Source of the DNA: a virus
Taxonomy: Duplodnaviria; Heunggongvirae; Uroviricota; Caudoviricetes
DNA length: 64,000 nucleotides
Direction: 5' to 3' (one strand)
IMG/VR virus record: IMGVR_UViG_3300036982_001423
The notes beneath the pieces were generated by a model. That model was not told where the DNA came from, made no database searches, and saw only the letters and a list, made by a program, of their open reading frames with translations. Each line of letters starts with the position of its first letter. Positions within the stretch are counted from its first letter, which is position 1. Positions 3,293 through 56,459 of the stretch are shown piece by piece. Both the position numbers and the translations under genes were made by a program.

Positions 3293-3514
3293 TTGAACAC
3301 AACAATGCTCTTATATCAAGCAAACATACAGTTATCCATGCAAGCAAACACGCAAGCAAAACCAAAATGCCCGCGATGTGGTGGAGACACTTACTCGCGT
3401 GGGTATGAGATATATGCGCAAGTCCCGCACAAGCGCAAGAAGTATAGTTGTAAAGAATGTGGACATCCATTTTCAGAGAAGAATGTAGAGTTACACCCGG
3501 AGATTAAGGAATGA
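3293..3514 (+). CDS. Zn-ribbon protein
   Basis: CPRCGG...CKECGHPF double CxxC; stop overlaps next start. Confidence 0.5.
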   Translation: MNTTMLLYQANIQLSMQANTQAKPKCPRCGGDTYSRGYEIYAQVPHKRKKYSCKECGHPFSEKNVELHPEIKE

Positions 3515-3885
3515 CGCAAGATATTACAGTTACGAATGGCAACCCTGTAAGTAAAAAGATCAGTGGGTTCTGGACAGGGTTATCCAGTCAGGAAGGGTTT
3601 CTGGTAATGTATACGGACACGCCAGTATTTGACGTAGACGAGAATGGAGAGCAGACGGTCAGAGAAATTAATCGGGAATATGTATTCGACGCACAGATGA
3701 CAAACGAGGTATACGTTTCGATAGCGAGGACAATGCTGGCGTATATCCAGAATGTAGATGAGTTAAGGAAGGCAGAATACATAGCGTTATTAGAGCGTAG
3801 GGAACGTGCAAAAGCAGAGGCAGAAGCAGAAGATGCACCTAAAAAAGAACCAGAACCTCAAGATAACCCGGAGACGCCTGCATGA
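3511..3885 (+). CDS. hypothetical protein (acidic C-terminus)
   Basis: ATGA overlap with upstream gene; 124 aa. Confidence 0.55.
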   Translation: MTQDITVTNGNPVSKKISGFWTGLSSQEGFLVMYTDTPVFDVDENGEQTVREINREYVFDAQMTNEVYVSIARTMLAYIQNVDELRKAEYIALLERRERAKAEAEAEDAPKKEPEPQDNPETPA

Positions 3886-4471: not shown

Positions 4472-5671
4472 TTGCGAATTAAAATAAAGCGCAAGATACT
4501 GGTGATCACACTGAAGCATGTTTTATCCAAATCGCAATCGTCTCTAGAAGCATTCCAAGAGAAAGCGAGAGCAGAACACATCATAAAATTTGTCAAATCT
4601 CTTACTGAAAACAAACTTAAAATAATACAGTTGTTAGATTCAGGCTTATACCAAGCCGCAATCGCCCGCAGATTAAAACTTTCAAAATCATATATAAACC
4701 GATTCGTAAAAGAGTTATTACATAAAGGATGTATCTCAAAGGATTTCGTTAATCCTATAACTCATGTAGCTACATCGTACCTCATATCCCCTCAGTTAAA
4801 AGTTTATATTAAAAAACTAGAAACGTCAAAACCCAATTTTAATACGACATTAGCGATCCCCCATAACGTAAGATATAAATTCCCTATGATGGGAAAAAAA
4901 GTAAAAATATCGCTCAATACAAAACGTTTCGCCGCAGCGAAACTCAAAATGGAACGCGACTGGTGCATGCGTGGAGGAACGTGGTATAATTTCACTATGC
5001 GGCACGAACATATAGGGAATGTGGGTATCACAGTAACCCCCAGTTCATTATTAGTATATCAGAAAGACCGTTCTCCAATAATAGCCAAATCATGTGAAGA
5101 TGCAACGAATATCATAAGTATGAGTTTACACGAGGTTGCCAACAGGTTCGTGCAGGAACAGGCGTGGGAAAACGTGCATATAGAACTTGGACAACCAGAA
5201 CTTGTCGGAAGTCCCCATTTCGCTTTTAACAGTAAAATATCTCAAAAAATAGTTGCAGCGGGCAACGCACTCATGCAGGTAGGTAATGGATTAGAAATAG
5301 ATGACTCATTAAAGGGAAAATTCGATCAAGCAGAGATAGAAACTACAGATGCTACGCAAGCAGATTTAGTAGATAAGGGATTAAGAGTAGCAGCGGATAT
5401 TGAGAATATCGTTCCAGCAATGATCCAAAAGGAATTAAGATCAGTATCAGAGCAGGTATTAGGGATCAATGCACAAGCAGAGAAGATAGATTTAATCGTA
5501 AATTCAGTTCAAGCTCTTTGCCAGTCGGGACTTCCACGAGATCCAAGATTGGAACAACTTTTCAACGTCGTTGCAACTCAAGGAAAAACAATCAATCTCA
5601 TGCAAGAAAGCATGCTCGGAATCATCAAAAATATGGAATTAATGTTACACAATCAACAAAAAGGTGTTTGA
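4472..5671 (+). CDS. winged-HTH domain protein (putative transcription regulator) with large C-terminal domain
   Basis: N-terminal KLKIIQLLDSGLYQAAIARRLKLSKSYINRFVKELLHKGCI resembles an MarR/ArsR-like wHTH; 399 aa. Confidence 0.55.
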   Translation: MRIKIKRKILVITLKHVLSKSQSSLEAFQEKARAEHIIKFVKSLTENKLKIIQLLDSGLYQAAIARRLKLSKSYINRFVKELLHKGCISKDFVNPITHVATSYLISPQLKVYIKKLETSKPNFNTTLAIPHNVRYKFPMMGKKVKISLNTKRFAAAKLKMERDWCMRGGTWYNFTMRHEHIGNVGITVTPSSLLVYQKDRSPIIAKSCEDATNIISMSLHEVANRFVQEQAWENVHIELGQPELVGSPHFAFNSKISQKIVAAGNALMQVGNGLEIDDSLKGKFDQAEIETTDATQADLVDKGLRVAADIENIVPAMIQKELRSVSEQVLGINAQAEKIDLIVNSVQALCQSGLPRDPRLEQLFNVVATQGKTINLMQESMLGIIKNMELMLHNQQKGV

Positions 5672-6398
5672 AACGAGTCATCCAAACAAAACCTACACAA
5701 ATTTTTGCAAATTTTGTAAAAAAAAGTTTAAAACAAAAAATAAAATAAAATTATTCTGTTCAACAAACTGCTATGGAAAATGGCAATCAAAATACAGAAT
5801 AGGAAACAAGCATCATGGAACGGGAACAAAACAATCTCTTGAAACTAGAAAAAGAATATCAGAATCGATGAGTGGAAAAAACCACCCCAATTTTGGTATA
5901 AAATATTCAAAAGAAAGATGTTCCAAGATGAGTGAACGTAGTAAAGGAAAAAATAGTTATTGGTATAACAAAAAATTATCCCCCTCTCACGTAACTAATA
6001 TAATATCGGGAAATAAAAATAGCATCAAACGAAAATTAAACCCCCAAAAAAAAGGGATAGAATCTACGGCATGGTTAGGTGGAAAAACAAAAGAAAAATA
6101 CCCATCATTTTTAAGAGAGAAAACCGTTAATCGTATAATTTATGCAACTTATAGCAACAAATGTGTTATCTGCGGGGCATCTCCAGAGCAATCAAAAAAA
6201 GAAAGTAACTATGGATTAGCAAAACACCATTGGGATTATAACAAAAACTCAATTAATATTGTAACATTATGTAAAAAACATCACGATATGACTTCAATAA
6301 ACAAAGACCGCCCTTATTGGGAACAATACTTCCACGAACTAACAGCACTCACCTATGGGGGTACACCTATTATATTCAAAACGTTTCTAAAACCATGA
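5664..6398 (+). CDS. HNH homing endonuclease with NUMOD3 DNA-binding repeats
   Basis: Repeated E(T/E)RK(R/K)ISES..GK.HP..G motifs (NUMOD3); C-terminal CVICG...KHHWDYN...LCKKHHD HNH signature. Confidence 0.75.
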   Translation: MFETSHPNKTYTNFCKFCKKKFKTKNKIKLFCSTNCYGKWQSKYRIGNKHHGTGTKQSLETRKRISESMSGKNHPNFGIKYSKERCSKMSERSKGKNSYWYNKKLSPSHVTNIISGNKNSIKRKLNPQKKGIESTAWLGGKTKEKYPSFLREKTVNRIIYATYSNKCVICGASPEQSKKESNYGLAKHHWDYNKNSINIVTLCKKHHDMTSINKDRPYWEQYFHELTALTYGGTPIIFKTFLKP

Positions 6399-6876: not shown

Positions 6877-6880
6877 ATAA

Positions 6881-6915
6881 TATATATATAGCACAAGCGC
6901 CTTATTACTATTACT
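6881..6915 (+). promoter_or_regulatory. conserved promoter element TATATATATA-N7-CGCCTTATTACTATTA (copy 1 of 3)
   Basis: Same composite motif at 8265..8295 and 56405..56439, each ending about 20 nt before an ATG. Confidence 0.55.
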
Positions 6916-6932
6916 CAACAAGAGGTAATGGT

Positions 6933-7736
6933 ATGGTTAAATACACACGGAGACACTTCCAAGAAATTTCGGCACTAATTTCCAAAGTTCCGAAAGCACA
7001 GCGCAGAGAAGAAGCCGAACGATATGCTAACATGTTCAGAGCAGACAACCCAAGGTTTGACAAGGGTAAGTTCATGGCAGCCTGCAAACTGGACGCAGAG
7101 AATGTAGGTAAATATTTACCTCCAAACTTCAAAGCAAAATTTATGTCGGGAGTGACCATAAATCGCGCAGAAGGATCAGCAACATTGAATAAAGCGAACA
7201 CAGACTTTATCAATAAATCTATTTCGAACCCCAGTAAAGCAAAACAATTTAATATGGTATTAGATAAAAAAGGATTATCGTATCTTTCAACGGGGAGTGG
7301 AACATCAACAATCTATAAATCGGCACAACTCCTTCCAGCAACCGGAGGGAATGATAAAACAAAATCTTTAGGAAACTGCGGATGCAAAGGGAAAGGCAAA
7401 GCCAAAAAGAAACCGAAAAAGATAGGCAATCTGAACTCGTTCAGAGCAACCCAGTGGGAAAAAGTCAAGTCTTCGGGAATGCTCAACGATTATACGAATG
7501 CAGAGAAACGGTTTTCAACGGCTACGGATAAACAGTTAGCCAATTTACGTGGATTTGCAAAGACGCTAACCCCAGAAGATCGGCAATACCACAAAAGTTA
7601 TGCTAGTTACTCGACATGGCAATTAGCAAACACCAAAAAACAACCCACAGCACTTACTGAAGAAGCGTGGAGAGCCGAAGTTAAAAAGAACATGACGGGC
7701 GGATTAAAAGCCTACGCAAAGAAACAGAATATGTAA
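6933..7736 (+). CDS. hypothetical protein
   Basis: 267-aa ORF downstream of conserved promoter element; contains GNCGCKGKGKAKKK stretch. Confidence 0.6.
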   Translation: MVKYTRRHFQEISALISKVPKAQRREEAERYANMFRADNPRFDKGKFMAACKLDAENVGKYLPPNFKAKFMSGVTINRAEGSATLNKANTDFINKSISNPSKAKQFNMVLDKKGLSYLSTGSGTSTIYKSAQLLPATGGNDKTKSLGNCGCKGKGKAKKKPKKIGNLNSFRATQWEKVKSSGMLNDYTNAEKRFSTATDKQLANLRGFAKTLTPEDRQYHKSYASYSTWQLANTKKQPTALTEEAWRAEVKKNMTGGLKAYAKKQNM

Positions 7737-7757
7737 TTTATAATATGCGGAGATTAC

Positions 7758-8224
7758 ATGGCAACCAAACGCACGGGATGTAAGAAACCGAGGCTCGTGG
7801 GGAGGCTAAACTCGTTTCCACCTATAGTTGGATGTGGAGCTGGCAATTGCACTATGCCAACACTCCTATCCAAAAAACCAATTACAAAAGCCGAAGTGAA
7901 GTTCATGAAAGGGGTAAAAATAGACCGTTACGAATGTTCACAGGTTTATCCCGGAGGGAATTGTAATGGGGGAAGTGTAATGGGGGAAGTGTAACCATCA
8001 ACAAAACCTCCAGCACTCCGGTAATCCGGGCATTAAGCAGGTCTCCGGATAATGCAACGGTAAAATCTATTCAGGCTGGGATGACAAGGAACGCAGACGG
8101 TTCTACTACCCTGTCAATGGATGCGTGGAACAAGTTCCAGAAAGCGGTAAATGCGAAACGTCCGGATATCTTCGCACCTGTTAAATGGACTAGGTTCGTG
8201 CGGAAAGAAACCGAAACGAACTAA
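7758..8224 (+). pseudogene. gene interrupted by frameshift from a 14-bp tandem duplication (7758..7994 plus 7991..8224 in the +2 frame)
   Basis: Removing one copy of GTAATGGGGGAAGT restores a continuous ORF of about 150 aa whose C-terminus carries the GMTRNADGSTTL...DAW repeat also found twice in 13443..13688. Confidence 0.55.
7963..7990. repeat. perfect 2 x 14-bp tandem duplication GTAATGGGGGAAGT
   Basis: Read directly from sequence; followed by partial third unit GTAA. Confidence 0.85.
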
Positions 8225-8264
8225 AAAATAATTCATTTTTTCTTCTCTCGTATTTTCCCAAATC

Positions 8265-8295
8265 TATATATATACGGGACGCCTTATTACTATTA
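8265..8295 (+). promoter_or_regulatory. conserved promoter element TATATATATA-N5-CGCCTTATTACTATTA (copy 2)
   Basis: See 6881..6915. Confidence 0.55.
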
Positions 8296-8314
8296 TCCGA
8301 ATGGAGAATGTATT

Positions 8315-8440
8315 ATGGCAAACAAAATACCTAAAACTAATAATCAGTTTGGAGGTTCATTAGAACGCATAAACGATAATTTAAAGAAACAGCGACCCAA
8401 ACGATTATTTGGAGAATTACCTATTAAGAAAAACTGGTAA
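8315..8440 (+). CDS. small hypothetical protein (41 aa)
   Basis: First ATG 20 nt downstream of conserved promoter element. Confidence 0.35.
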   Translation: MANKIPKTNNQFGGSLERINDNLKKQRPKRLFGELPIKKNW

Positions 8441-8513
8441 TACGGTTTTTATAATGTGTATATACAGTCCACACCTGTAAATAGGTATCCCCTCATGGGA
8501 AGAGTACTCAATC

Positions 8514-8657
8514 ATGACAGCACAACGAAGAAAACGACAAGGTGGCGACTTTATGGATATTGTCGCCAGTGAAAAGAAAAAACCCGTAAACCCAATGTTT
8601 CCGGGAACATGGGAAGGAGCTATGGGTGCAGCTCGAAAAGCACCAAGGCGCAGGTAA
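8514..8657 (+). CDS. small basic protein (47 aa)
   Basis: ORF below track cutoff; R/K-rich. Confidence 0.3.
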   Translation: MTAQRRKRQGGDFMDIVASEKKKPVNPMFPGTWEGAMGAARKAPRRR

Positions 8658-8902
8658 GGGCATACCCCATGCCCACCTCACCTTCTGGCGAACAGTTTGC
8701 AGATAAGAACCGTAACGGCTACCCGGACAACTTCGAAGCCGAAGAAACTGCGATAAAAGCCCAGTTCGCCCAGCGTCGTGCCCAATATGGCAAGAACAGA
8801 GAATGGGACAACCCGTTGATTGACGATGATACGGGTGATGTCATGGAAATGAAGAACAGCGTTTTTGAAGAACTATTTGGCTTAAAGAAAAAGGTGAAAT
8901 AA
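8609..8902 (+). CDS. hypothetical protein, paralog of 8905..9207 (true start may be ATG at 8669)
   Basis: Shares NxNGYPD(N/E)(F/Y)EA(E/Q)ET ... D(D/K)D(T/S)GD(V/P)ME(M/E)K with the next gene. Confidence 0.55.
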   Translation: MGRSYGCSSKSTKAQVRAYPMPTSPSGEQFADKNRNGYPDNFEAEETAIKAQFAQRRAQYGKNREWDNPLIDDDTGDVMEMKNSVFEELFGLKKKVK

Positions 8903-8904
8903 AC

Positions 8905-9207
8905 ATGGCATGGAAACAATATCCAAAGAAACGACAGCACAGGTATCCCCCCAAACAACAGCAACCTACAGAACCGGCAGCCCCGGTAGAAGCAACGCCA
9001 TTAACTGACCTGAACAGTAACGGGTATCCGGACGAATATGAAGCGCAAGAGACGATGTTATTCGACCAGATCAGATCTCGCAGAAAATCGTATGGATATA
9101 CAAAAGAGATTGAAGCATATTCTGGTGTAGGTCAGAGTGCAGATAAAGATAGTGGTGATCCGATGGAAGAAAAGAAATCCGCGTTCCGGGAAATACTGGG
9201 GATGTGA
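8905..9207 (+). CDS. hypothetical protein, tandem paralog of 8609..8902
   Basis: See above. Confidence 0.6.
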   Translation: MAWKQYPKKRQHRYPPKQQQPTEPAAPVEATPLTDLNSNGYPDEYEAQETMLFDQIRSRRKSYGYTKEIEAYSGVGQSADKDSGDPMEEKKSAFREILGM

Positions 9208-9213
9208 TTTAGC

Positions 9214-9456
9214 ATGCCTCCCCGCACAAGATACGGTAGACCCGTAAGAGTTCCGTTTATCGACCCAGAAATGCGGAAACGCATTGAACAGAACGTTAAA
9301 GATAATAAACAGTTAGGCGGCATGGCACTGACAAAGGCGGATGCAGAGCGTCAAAAGAAAAAGTTTGAGTTAAAAGGATATATTTCATGGATTATCAGGA
9401 TCAACTCCGATAATTACCATATTATGATCAGCAAACTTAGTGGGGGATTTAAATGA
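9214..9456 (+). CDS. hypothetical protein
   Basis: 80-aa ORF in coupled array. Confidence 0.5.
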   Translation: MPPRTRYGRPVRVPFIDPEMRKRIEQNVKDNKQLGGMALTKADAERQKKKFELKGYISWIIRINSDNYHIMISKLSGGFK

Positions 9457-13442: not shown

Positions 13443-13688
13443 TTGACGAAATTCGAAGAATTCAAAAAAGGCGTAACTCGTAACGCAGACGGTTCAACGA
13501 AACTGAACACAGCATCCTCAAAAATGTATGACGAGTGGAAAACCAAGATTGGAGACCCGACAAATCGCCCGAAAGTCCAAGAGTTCTTAAAAGGTATAAC
13601 TCGTCACGCAGATGGCACTATTACTATCAGTGCAGCATCTACGATAATGCTGAAACAGTTTATGCAGAACCGTAGGGCAAACAAATGA
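13443..13688 (+). CDS. protein with internal duplicated GxTRxADG(S)T motif (TTG start or internal ATG)
   Basis: FKKGVTRNADGSTKL... / FLKGITRHADGTITI...; same motif in C-terminal part of frameshifted gene 7758..8224. Confidence 0.45.
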   Translation: MTKFEEFKKGVTRNADGSTKLNTASSKMYDEWKTKIGDPTNRPKVQEFLKGITRHADGTITISAASTIMLKQFMQNRRANK

Positions 13689-14529: not shown

Positions 14530-15621
14530 TTATTTATTTAGTTGAGCATATTCTTCTTTAGTATAGAAACATTTACCCCAATAGTCCTCATCAATAATCT
14601 TCTCAAATTTTTTGATCCATGTTAGTTTATCTTTTGCAACTTCCCCATGTTCTTTTGCAGTTAATAAAACAAATTTATTCGGATCTTCGCCCACATAATG
14701 CCGATACATATTAGGTTTTTTTGCAGTTCCAATATTAATCATCGCATAGTAACCGTGATCATCTTCAGACCATTCACAGCAAGCCCTCTCTTGCCAGTAT
14801 ACATGATGACGAGTTAATGCACGACCCCCATTATCTATTTTTGTTTTCTTAGAGAGGATACTACGATTATTTTGAAATGTATCGATTCTAACCCATAGAT
14901 CTTTATTCCACAATTCACAATATTTTTTCTTTCCATTATAACGAACATTCCCATACCAAAAACCGCCTACTTTTGCCTCCACAACTTTCATAGTGTGCAT
15001 TTCAGATTTAGGTCGTCCAATTTGTGCAAGACTCATCCGTTTACATGTTTCAGAAGTAAATGTTTGCCCTATATGTGCAATCCGCAGTTTTTCGCGGGTT
15101 ATTAAAGAAGCGGGCTTTCGTTTCGCTCTTACTTTCGGAATTTTCGGGATATCAACAAGTATTTTTACTGTCGCAACTTTATATTTAGATTCCCGTTGAG
15201 GTTTAATTTTAATTGGTCGGATTCGTTTTTTCTGGGATACGCTCATTCTTTTACGTGTTTCTTCTGACACGGGATTTAATACAGAACGTATCTTTAGGGC
15301 GTTTCGGATTTTATCTCTTGTGAGGGGGTTTTCCATCCGCTTTTTAGCCGCAACTCGCATACGTTCAAACGATTCAGCAGGAATTTCAAAATTAGTACGG
15401 TCATGTTTTTTAGTTATTATTTTTGCCGTATGTTCTTTTGATTGAATTTTTCCCTTATTTGCAATAGATAATTTTTTACGAGCCTCTGGAGAACGCATTC
15501 TCATTATAGCTGCATCAGATATTTTTTTACAATGTTCGGGAGTAAACCGTTTACCCCTATTTGCAACAGATAACTTTTGTCTCCAGTTCTTATATTTTAT
15601 AGGATCTTTTGGTGCAGGCAT
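14530..15621 (-). CDS. homing endonuclease, NUMOD3 repeats + HNH-like nuclease domain
   Basis: Only clear minus-strand gene; repeated RKKLSIANKGK / TRKRMSVSQKK / CKRMSLAQIGR NUMOD3-like motifs; C-terminal HH...N...H His-Me finger-like region. Confidence 0.7.
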   Translation of the reverse strand: MPAPKDPIKYKNWRQKLSVANRGKRFTPEHCKKISDAAIMRMRSPEARKKLSIANKGKIQSKEHTAKIITKKHDRTNFEIPAESFERMRVAAKKRMENPLTRDKIRNALKIRSVLNPVSEETRKRMSVSQKKRIRPIKIKPQRESKYKVATVKILVDIPKIPKVRAKRKPASLITREKLRIAHIGQTFTSETCKRMSLAQIGRPKSEMHTMKVVEAKVGGFWYGNVRYNGKKKYCELWNKDLWVRIDTFQNNRSILSKKTKIDNGGRALTRHHVYWQERACCEWSEDDHGYYAMINIGTAKKPNMYRHYVGEDPNKFVLLTAKEHGEVAKDKLTWIKKFEKIIDEDYWGKCFYTKEEYAQLNK

Positions 15622-15951: not shown

Positions 15952-16084
15952 GCCGAGTATCCCGAAGGCGAGGCATTCGCACTCTCCGAGGACACGGCAT
16001 TGGTATTTTCCACCAGATTTTCTCCAACGGTTCACCCGCCGAGAACCCCGCCGGATCCCCCCGTATGACTAAAGCTCCTCCACG

Positions 16085-16157
16085 CCGACACCCCCCGAAC
16101 CCCCCGATAAATTACACGGATGTATATGCAGGAAAGAAGCCCAAATTATAAAGCACT
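16085..16157. repeat. direct repeat unit 2
   Basis: See 15865..15951. Confidence 0.6.
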
Positions 16158-17396
16158 TTAATTTATGAATAATTAATTATCCCCCTTCTTTCTTTCGTAC
16201 TATCTATTATTCCTCTGATAATCTCTATTCCAAAAGAGAGTACCCCCCTACCCCCCTAAGAGAAAGGGTTTTTCCCTTATTATCCCCATAGTGAATAAAG
16301 GTGATAAAGGGAATAGACCCCTCATAATAGGAGCAGGGTAATATCCCGCAGGGTTAAAGCTCTTTTATGGACTGCATATACAGAACGAAAATTACCGAGC
16401 CGAGCCAAGCCCCCAAGCCCAGACCCGACCCGACCCGACCAGACCAGACAAACCCCGGCACCGAGGGAAAGGACGACCCCCGCCCCCCGGACAACCCAGA
16501 ACGCAGGAACGATGGTACACGAGATTGCCGCACCCCCCGCACTTCTAAAGAAAATACGCCTGTACCAGACGAACTGCCGCACCAAGCCCTCCGAGGTAAA
16601 ACACCCCCCGCACACCTCTGACACCGAGGTTAAATTTAGAACCCCCCGCCTGTACACGCCTGTAAAAGCAGGTTCAAAAAAAGAGGCAAAAAAGAGTAAA
16701 AAAAGCCAAATCTCCGACGTAAAAATCACTTTCACCCCCCCGCCCAAAGGTATATATCCTACCCAGTCAATCTATCAATCATGCAATGGATGGAACAAAC
16801 GGGAGGGAAAAAGTGAACCAGTGAACCGGGACACTCCTTATCATAGGAGAAAACCCGGAAAAGGATCGGTGATAATCCAGAGGGTAAGCCCCCCTGATAA
16901 CAACCAAAATTTCCCGCCTGATAGGGAGATAAAAAGTTGTAAGTCAGGAGGAAACCTCAAATTATCCCCGACCAGACAATTTTAAACGAGCGACCCAAAT
17001 GTTAAATCGCCGTCATAAAGAGAGCAGATTTTATTTTTCACCCGATCAGTTATGACCTGACAAGACGGAGAGATTAGCCGGTAAACCGGGATAAGAGATT
17101 ATCGCAATGGGAAACTCAGCGTATCCGAGAGGATATACTAAACACAAACACCGAGGTAAAAACGAGTAATATCGTAAGTAACCCCACGAACAACCACACC
17201 CGTAAACCGTTAAACGGCACACGGAGAACAGCCGAAATTTACCAGTTATGGAAATTTAGGGATTTTTGTTTTTTCAATCGCCAACAACAGCCCGGCACAG
17301 GCAACCGGACGGGATTTATGTAAACCAGTTATGGAGTACACAGCAGGATCACGCCCTGCCAAATCCGTTAAAAAAACCAGTACCGCAAAACGACCA

Positions 17397-45861: not shown

Positions 45862-46920
45862 ATGATCTTAACCTTCAAACTCAAGCATGAACAGAACTAT
45901 GATAGTCTGTTAAAGAAAGCGTTTGAAGTAGCGGAGTTTACGGTTGCTAATAAGATCCGATCCCCGAACACTACGTTTGTTAAAGATATACGGGGAGATT
46001 TACCGTCAATGATAGCATGTCAGGTGATGAAAAAGTATGGTCATCAGAAAACGATCAAAGCAGTTCACAATGCCAACTTAATTATACCGGGACAGGGTGT
46101 AAAGTATATTGAAGAAACGAACTCTATTTGGATACCGTGTCTGAAACTACATTTAGAGAATACTATTAATCGGACTTTCAGTAAGATCAACCAAGTAGAA
46201 GTTGACCGAGAGTTTGCGTATATTTCATGCACTGTAGCAGAACTACCGGAGATGATACCCTATGAAAATATCATAGGAGTTGACAGGAACACAACCGGAC
46301 ACATAGCCGTATCAGCGAACTTAACTACAGGTCAGGTAAGGATGATGGGTAAGAAAGCCCAACACCTCCATACAAAATACCGACAGTTAAGAACGGCTAT
46401 GCAAAAGGACGGACAGTATCGCAAGGTTGAACGGATCAAGAGCCGTGAAAGCCGGATCGTGAAGGACTTAAACCATAAGATCAGTCGTAAACTGGTTGAT
46501 ATGGCGAAAGTCCAACATGCAGCATTAGTATTCGAAAAACTGACGGGTATTCGAAATACTAAAAAACAATCCCGTTCATTCAAGCCATCCCTGCACAGTT
46601 GGTCATTCTATCAACTACAAACGTTCATAGAATACAAAGCCAAGCTGCTCGGAGTGCCTGTTATATACGTTGATCCCGCATACACTAGTCAAGACTGTTC
46701 TAAATGCGGTACAAGAGGACAACGATATAAAAAGGTGTTTAAGTGTCCTGCTTGTGGACACGCAGATCATGCAGACGTTAATGCAGCGTTCAATATTGCA
46801 AAACGTCAACAAACCATGATCGCTCGTATACAGACAAAGATGTGTACGATGGGAGCACTGATCTCCCACGACGACGCTCTGTTCGAACGCGAACACCGTT
46901 TAGAACCCCACGGTCTTTAG
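45862..46920 (+). CDS. tnpB: TnpB (IS200/IS605 OrfB) RuvC-like RNA-guided nuclease
   Basis: RuvC-I GVDRNT, RuvC-II E in LVFEKL, Zn finger CSKCG...CPACGH, RuvC-III HADVNAAFNIAKR. Confidence 0.85.
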   Translation: MILTFKLKHEQNYDSLLKKAFEVAEFTVANKIRSPNTTFVKDIRGDLPSMIACQVMKKYGHQKTIKAVHNANLIIPGQGVKYIEETNSIWIPCLKLHLENTINRTFSKINQVEVDREFAYISCTVAELPEMIPYENIIGVDRNTTGHIAVSANLTTGQVRMMGKKAQHLHTKYRQLRTAMQKDGQYRKVERIKSRESRIVKDLNHKISRKLVDMAKVQHAALVFEKLTGIRNTKKQSRSFKPSLHSWSFYQLQTFIEYKAKLLGVPVIYVDPAYTSQDCSKCGTRGQRYKKVFKCPACGHADHADVNAAFNIAKRQQTMIARIQTKMCTMGALISHDDALFEREHRLEPHGL

Positions 46921-55333: not shown

Positions 55334-55496
55334 CGTAATAGTAACCCCCAGTATGATCATTGAATATCTGGAAATGAAAAGCAAAGAGCAAGACCTAAAC
55401 AACCAATCAAAAGAACCGAAAAACACACTCGTACAATTCCTAAAAAACCAATCAAAAGAACCGGAAAGCACAATTATACAATTCCAAGAACCGTGA
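55317..55496 (+). CDS. small repeat-containing protein (59 aa)
   Basis: contains 2 x about 42-bp tandem DNA repeat encoding NQSKEPxxT..QF. Confidence 0.4.
   Translation: MAQLTNVIVTPSMIIEYLEMKSKEQDLNNQSKEPKNTLVQFLKNQSKEPESTIIQFQEP
55393..55480. repeat. two tandem units of about 44 bp (AACCAATCAAAAGAACCGRAAARCACA...TACAATTCC)
   Basis: read from sequence. Confidence 0.7.
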
Positions 55497-56190: not shown

Positions 56191-56404
56191 AGATCAGGAT
56201 CGGTGAAATAAATGATTTGTCCGGGATGTATTTTAGCAGGGATTGCGATTTGGTATGCGTTATTTTGGGATAAAACAAAAGCATGGGTTTCAAAAAAGTA
56301 TAAATTACTCAAAGGTGAAGAACAAATTTGATTGAATGTATATGCAGGTAATAACTTTCTGATGCGGATAATTACTGGCACGTTCAAGTTCGTTTTGTAA
56401 AGAA

Positions 56405-56439
56405 TATATATATATACCCCAAGCACCTTATTACTATTA
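56405..56439 (+). promoter_or_regulatory. conserved promoter element TATATATATATA-N9-CCTTATTACTATTA (copy 3)
   Basis: see 6881..6915. Confidence 0.55.
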
Positions 56440-56459
56440 TTCAATAAGGATGTGAATCT

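Follow-up and report, generated by a model that had tools for sequence, protein, structure and literature searches.

Probable pseudogenisation of a redundant accessory gene in an uncultured freshwater virus by a short tandem duplication

The plus-strand gene at positions 7758-8224 of the 64,000-nucleotide viral DNA stretch analysed here (the window) is the last of a two-gene unit (6933-7736, 7758-8224). Its upstream neighbour (6933..7736, plus strand) encodes 267 amino acids, including the basic junction motif GNCGCKGKGKAKKKPKKIGN, and the unit is bracketed by two plus-strand copies of a promoter-like or leader element. One copy (TATATATATA...GCCTTATTACTATTA, 6879..6918) is located just upstream of gene 6933, and the other (8256..8302) opens the next unit (gene 8315) and is 86% conserved in L003, a contig that carries an ortholog of the gene studied here. 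The element spans about 45 nt, reads (A/T)TCTATATATATA-N9-GCCTTATTACTATTAT(C/T)C and lies about 20 nt upstream of start codons. Further copies are present at window 56403-56444 (exact core at 56426), at 5009-5055 of contig L007 and at ~925-975 of L003. The 14-nt core occurs three times exactly in the window and five times when up to two mismatches are allowed, compared to 1.1 expected occurrences, and no shuffled sequence reached five. It probably serves as a promoter or leader specific to this virus, and contigs assembled from short reads break within it.

Within gene 7758-8224, the 14-nt sequence GTAATGGGGGAAGT is present twice, perfectly and head to tail, at 7963-7976 and 7977-7990 (...CCCGGAGGGAATT GTAATGGGGGAAGT GTAATGGGGGAAGT GTAACCATC...). 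The perfect units are preceded by an imperfect copy, GGGAAtTGTAATGG, and followed by the partial copy GTAA, and Tandem Repeats Finder (TRF) describes the plus-strand array at 7956..7994 (GGGAAtTGTAATGG / GGGAAGTGTAATGG / GGGAAGTGTAA) as 2.8 copies of period 14 with 96% matches and a score of 71. No other perfect tandem duplication with a unit length of 12-30 nt is present in the 64 kb analysed, and none was obtained in 30 shuffled windows. The first unit (7963..7976, plus strand) encodes part of a Gly-rich hairpin loop (...CNGGS). The second unit (7977..7990, plus strand) constitutes the inserted copy and is missing from the orthologous or homologous DNA on L003 and a further contig, L004.

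The break from frame 0 to frame 2 falls exactly at the duplication. Since 14 is not a multiple of three, the frame shifts and translation meets a TAA, itself made by the duplication, five codons past the start of the second unit. What remains in frame 0 is a truncated ORF of 78 amino acids (7758..7994, plus strand; GGAG 8 nt upstream of the ATG), the product of which consists of the ancestral N-terminal 73 residues followed by VMGEV. The orphaned, out-of-frame remainder in frame 2 (7967..8224, plus strand; stop at 8222-8224) is open for 85 codons without internal stops and encodes the best conserved part of the family (VTINKTSSTPVIR...IQAGMTRNADGS...RPDIF); between 7967 and 7991 both frames are open. 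Removal of either unit restores the frame, and deletion of 7977-7990 yields a 453-nt ORF of 150 amino acids. The original prediction had described a perfect 14-bp tandem duplication frameshifting a gene, with a fused protein of approximately 150 amino acids once one unit is taken out; coordinates and arithmetic proved correct on the sequence, and the two halves are contiguous in every relative. In the JGI annotation, the product of ORF 7758-7994 starts at Met32, giving a 46-aa protein, and a crude gene model of the window has its largest gap after 7994. About 80% of the window's ORFs lie on the plus strand, and gaps between genes have a median of 6 nt. We suggest that annotation should mark 7758-8224 as one disrupted gene, rather than as a 78-aa gene plus non-coding DNA.

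Relatives of this gene are few. A word-indexed search of 5.8 billion protein clusters recovered P0001 (263 aa), with 67% identity at 94% coverage, and a second homolog, P0002 (238 aa). Beyond these, an exhaustive HMMER profile search across 1.84 billion representative proteins yielded just P0007 (144 aa) and the locus's own fragment. All three relatives encode both halves in one ORF and lack the duplication, their junctions reading ...PGGSCGG-VTINKTSS..., ...NNCGSK-VTINKTSS... and ...SAPGH-TVNYNISKAS..., respectively. P0001 represents the positional ortholog. Directly downstream of the gene, window 8231-8948 shares 86% identity with its contig, L003, whose DNA at the homologous point (GGT AGT TGC GGG GGA GTA ACT) contains no duplication. 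No match to 6900-9300 was obtained among GenBank phages by megablast, and scans of IMG/VR, JGI metagenome contigs and GTDB genomes, run with the protein or with the family alignment, produced pattern matches only, none of which was confirmed by tblastn. Searching Pfam with the repaired protein and its homologs returned nothing meaningful. The protein family is very rare, uncharacterised and modular. Within the window, kinship of the C-terminal motif to ORF 13443-13688, which had been put forward as homology, received moderate support only (hhalign probability 62%, E 7.5e-5, 47 columns; tblastn E 0.06).

Comparison to the ortholog also bears on the age of the break. By tblastn, the orphaned part is 72% identical to P0001, compared to 49% for the N-terminal part, and the orphaned half shows a dN/dS of 0.043 relative to L003 at a dS of 0.84. 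This half has therefore been under strong purifying selection for essentially the whole separation of the two viruses and, given the low dN/dS together with the lack of internal stops, the break is young. The comparison of related genomes called for earlier thus came out in favour of a disrupted gene, with single-ORF relatives, no two-copy form among them and a conserved downstream segment. Relative-rate counts aimed at decay of the orphaned half gave 3 window-specific and 1 L003-specific amino-acid changes (14 and 5 at the nucleotide level), numbers that come from few sites and a saturated outgroup. The undecayed state of the orphaned half fits a very recent event; it would also fit continued low-level expression. 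Ordinary, unselected reversion of the unstable duplication, or background ribosomal slippage, is possible.

Another reading is gene fission into two independently expressed, functional halves. The first half does have a good start and a GGAG site, and an ATG is available in the downstream frame at 8081. However, frame 2 contains no ATG, GTG or TTG before 8081, and the start at 8081 would give only 47 amino acids, lacking the conserved VTINKTSS...IQAG and preceded by no GGAG-type site; this 47-aa product is absent from the protein collection. Moreover, the halves are fused in all homologs and, a low-confidence structural model (pLDDT 54) puts the break within a beta-hairpin and not between domains. 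We therefore regard fission as highly improbable.

The two-copy form is not confined to the window. Two Logan contigs, one each from runs SRR11848694 and SRR11848394, encode precisely the 78-aa product; the latter run is listed as a Lake Greifen metagenome (PMC10244341), and the upstream gene 6933-7736 is identical on JGI contig L005 (sample 3300036979) and on L001. Contigs L001, L002 and L005, which come from lake metagenomes, match the window at 100% identity across 1.4-3.2 kb and each carry two copies; their ends, at window 6902, 8267 and 8300, lie inside the repeated promoter-like element and not in the duplication. Including the window, there are four assemblies from at least three data sets, produced by at least two pipelines (JGI and Logan), and the two-copy allele is the consensus, or dominant, form in each data set assembled. 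The four assemblies may share one lake system and one clone, in which case the assemblies would be independent and the lineages not.

These contigs speak against an assembly or sequencing artefact, in which the real genome would hold one copy. Short tandem repeats can mis-assemble and the data are all metagenomic, but the four contigs from three data sets run identically through the site with no contig break there, and a perfect 14-bp duplication is atypical of sequencing error. In addition, the perfectly periodic stretch comprises 33 nt, and by our reasoning, rather than by computation, an assembly graph with k=31 would not form a repeat cycle over so short a length. Taken together, the identical assemblies, the location of their ends elsewhere and the 33-nt periodicity indicate that the duplication is real, and the artefact that had been listed among the possible explanations almost certainly does not apply.

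A one-copy version was not found anywhere searched, although a minority one-copy subpopulation may exist at the level of reads. The repaired protein, considered with three possible starts, is absent from about 15 billion proteins. A DNA pattern allowing one to three copies found no match in IMG/VR and the JGI contigs, a result of little weight as it missed the known two-copy form too; these two collections, as scanned, evidently hold no contigs of the same strain. The one-copy junction is defined by the k-mer GGGGGAAGTGTAACCATCAAC, preceded by AATTGTAAT.

Contingency loci such as the CTCTT repeats of Neisseria opa, the CAAT repeats of Haemophilus lic1 and the poly-G tracts of Campylobacter provide a precedent for repeats that act as genetic switches. 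The array studied here resembles them in that it is located in a coding region, its copy number sets the frame and it is in principle reversible by slippage. If the 14-bp array expanded and contracted during replication, it might toggle production of the full-length protein as a reversible ON/OFF switch. The orphaned half is perfectly preserved (dN/dS as above), the family is multicopy and its loop is hypervariable at this site, and perfect tandem duplications are unstable and revert by the same slippage that creates them, as in the Streisinger model. In contrast to contingency loci, which carry many short units and typically reside in bacterial surface-antigen genes, the viral array has two full copies of a long, 14-nt unit (2.8 copies in total), and the tract is absent from the ortholog and the other homologs (L003, L004, P0007). 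All four assemblies are two-copy, with no bubble or break at the site and thus no sign of polymorphism, and neither the search for the repaired protein nor, for what little it weighs, the copy-number pattern scan revealed an ON form. There would also be a single ON state, the one-copy form, since arrays of two or more copies always meet the same TAA. A four-copy array (+42 nt) was considered as a second ON state and rejected, as frame 0 runs into the TAA after the second unit regardless. The phase-variable site, or slipped-strand switch, suggested earlier is consequently hard to reconcile with the small number of copies, the lack of the tract in relatives and the lack of copy-number variants among the assemblies, and we consider it very unlikely.

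Apparent fixation in at least three data sets nevertheless leaves room for an advantageous or conditionally reversible allele. The two-copy allele might represent a selected, readily reversible OFF state in a multicopy, loop-hypervariable family, for example one that evades a protein-sensing host defence. We view this scenario as very unlikely. If true, an OFF state reverting by 14-bp slippage would amount to phase variation in an environmental virus, and a fluctuating mixture of one-copy and two-copy reads, if found, would make the case interesting as viral phase variation.

Translation could also bridge the two frames. Programmed -1 frameshifting is well known from dnaX (A_AAA_AAG) and from G/GT of phage lambda (G_GGA_AAG), and the arrangement at 7758-8224 is similar in that the downstream frame is -1 and the overlap contains a G-run. 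A programmed or leaky -1 event on the G5 run would require tRNA-Gly at GGG 7983-7985 to slip to 7982-7984, giving a product of about 155 amino acids with a 5-residue loop insertion (junction ...CNGGSVMGGSVTINK...). The shift needed, from frame 0 to frame 2, is indeed -1; G_GGG allows perfect re-pairing in the P-site, the overlap at 7967-7991 is open in both frames and the downstream half is intact. However, frame 0 of ORF 7758-7994 contains no X_XXY_YYZ heptamer. The candidates T_GGG_GGA and G_GGG_GAA are non-canonical and would at best permit P-site slippage, and the A-site codon GAA cannot re-pair after slippage. No hairpin or pseudoknot supports the site: the 136 nt at and after it (7955-8090) fold with an MFE of -33.8 kcal/mol, no better than shuffled sequences (mean -32.95 kcal/mol, z = -0.24; 77/200 fold at least as well), and no Rfam family reached the gathering threshold in the window. 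The homologs are all single-frame and hence conserve no recoding signal, and the two-frame arrangement, including the overlap, is a by-product of the young duplication. With neither a heptamer nor significant downstream RNA structure, the idea of a programmed-frameshift site finds no footing, and -1 frameshifting is very unlikely in our view. Transcriptional slippage was ruled out as well, given that a G5 run is too short for it.

This leaves loss of function, the one of the three explanations offered in the original prediction that is backed by evidence. We consider it likely that the gene, a redundant accessory one, became a pseudogene through a recent slipped-strand duplication. The one-copy sequence that we infer, ...GGGAATTGTAATGGGGGAAGTGTAACC... 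(GGGAATTGTAATGGGGGAAGTGTAA), contains an 11-nt imperfect direct repeat, GGGAAtTGTAA / GGGAAgTGTAA, the two members of which are 14 nt apart and identical at 10/11 positions (GGGAATTGTAA and GGGAAGTGTAA). A nascent strand ending in the second direct repeat could re-pair with the first, whereupon the 14 nt would be copied again. Such a slippage product predicts the T-G-G order of the 2.8-copy array, as observed.

Slippage of this kind is textbook knowledge. According to the Streisinger model, tandem duplications arise at short direct repeats, with classic examples in the rII and lysozyme genes of phage T4. The duplication at 7963-7990 shares with these mutations its head-to-tail arrangement at a pre-existing imperfect direct repeat, the premature stop and the existence of relatives without the duplication. 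It differs in that it resides in an environmental virus population, where it is apparently fixed, rather than in a laboratory mutant; nothing essential differs beyond this. The case also illustrates that, in several samples of a virus population in the wild, the consensus can be a loss-of-function allele.

The site of the duplication encodes a Gly-rich turn (...NCNGGS|VTIN...) of a loop whose length differs in every homolog, ranging from GG (in one domain of the 306-aa protein on L007) to about 20 residues in the 7758-8224 gene. This variability points to a region with a history of indels, and the case thereby draws attention to a rare modular family in which the hairpin loop is an indel hot spot. 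An AlphaFold model built from a 4-sequence alignment is of low confidence (pLDDT 53.8) and provides a hint on secondary structure only; it tentatively shows two helix-hairpin-helix repeats, with the site in the loop of the first one. On this model, the 78-aa stump would be missing half of the first repeat and the whole of the second, leaving a basic N-terminus that is disordered, a single helix and a single strand. The most conserved 60% of the protein is no longer translated. A Foldseek search of the PDB assigned no fold (best E 0.28).

The 3' end of the gene contains a second frame discontinuity, which the original prediction had missed. The ancestral C-terminal tail, GSCGKKPKRTKK*, is encoded on the plus strand at 8193..8231 in frame 0 only; its DNA is homologous to that of the ortholog linker GSCGKKNKK, and the tail also matches the end of P0002, GSFGKRKRSK*. 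A net length difference of 29 nt relative to the ortholog at ~8176-8190 puts this tail out of frame with the middle domain, which is read in frame 2. Even after repair to one copy, the gene would therefore end in a non-homologous 10-residue tail. As P0007 does not have the tail, it may be dispensable. The occurrence of two indels that change the frame within 470 nt fits relaxed constraint on the 7758-8224 copy.

Redundancy could explain why the loss was tolerated. P0007 and the adjoining 306-aa protein, in which the domain is present twice more, were found in the same two samples as the locus. The longest contig recorded for P0007 measures 115,114 nt, and the same figure is reported for the phage-like 115-kb contig carrying the locus, for which a look-up of the 41-aa downstream product gave no record; the shared samples and the matching length suggest that P0007 belongs to the same genome. 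The 306-aa gene lies directly upstream of P0007 on both L007 and L008, and L007 does not overlap the window. Three additional intact domain copies thus appear to be present in the viral genome. Given these copies and the position of the gene at the end of its unit, its loss was probably tolerated. The downstream genes probably have a promoter of their own, so the frameshift should exert no polar effect on them.

The paralogous cassette on L007 (5069-6435) is of interest for the architecture of the family. Its 306-aa protein combines a Zn-ribbon-like N-terminus (CSQCG...CPHC, as in P0002) with two domains, and P0007, which follows it, carries the third domain copy. A basic motif, G-[SN]-[CFY]-G-x-K-K-x-K-P-K-x-[IV]-G-[NR], recurs at the N-terminus of single-module family proteins and at every junction of multi-module ones (window 7404-7430 and 7782-7805; L007 5069-5989; P0001 residues ~155-172; P0002 ~62-78). 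The motif may act as a joint for module shuffling or as a site of processing. At its C-terminus, P0001 carries an additional module of about 110 amino acids (…YNTYASYKSNPANK…; L003 ~590-889) that, by eye, resembles the C-terminus of the 6933-7736 product (…YHKSYASYSTWQLANTKK…; window 7600-7736); tblastn did not report this pair at E <= 1. The resemblance suggests module exchange. L007 further encodes unusual cargo, namely a histone-fold protein (PF00808 CBFD_NFYB_HMF) and two SprT-like proteins (3373-3633 and 1991-2802). If L007 belongs to the same virus, as appears to be the case, this cargo may hint at the host lineage.

Most window proteins tested had no Pfam or PHROG match. Mobile-element genes encode an HNH/NUMOD3 endonuclease (5664-6398, plus strand), a homing endonuclease on the minority strand (14530-15621, minus strand) and a transposase-like protein (45862-46920, plus strand; phrog_506, E 9e-41). 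ARAGORN found no tRNA genes in window 1-64000. Two other repetitive regions were observed. An ORF-poor, C-rich stretch of 439 nt at 16073-16511 is densely filled with short tandem repeats, namely GACCC x5.6, CCAGACCCGA x3.1 and TACCCCCC x2.2, and contrasts with the background of 40% GC, and the top TRF score in the window (142) belongs to a 45-bp tandem repeat at 55394-55485 with 2.0 copies and 87% matches.
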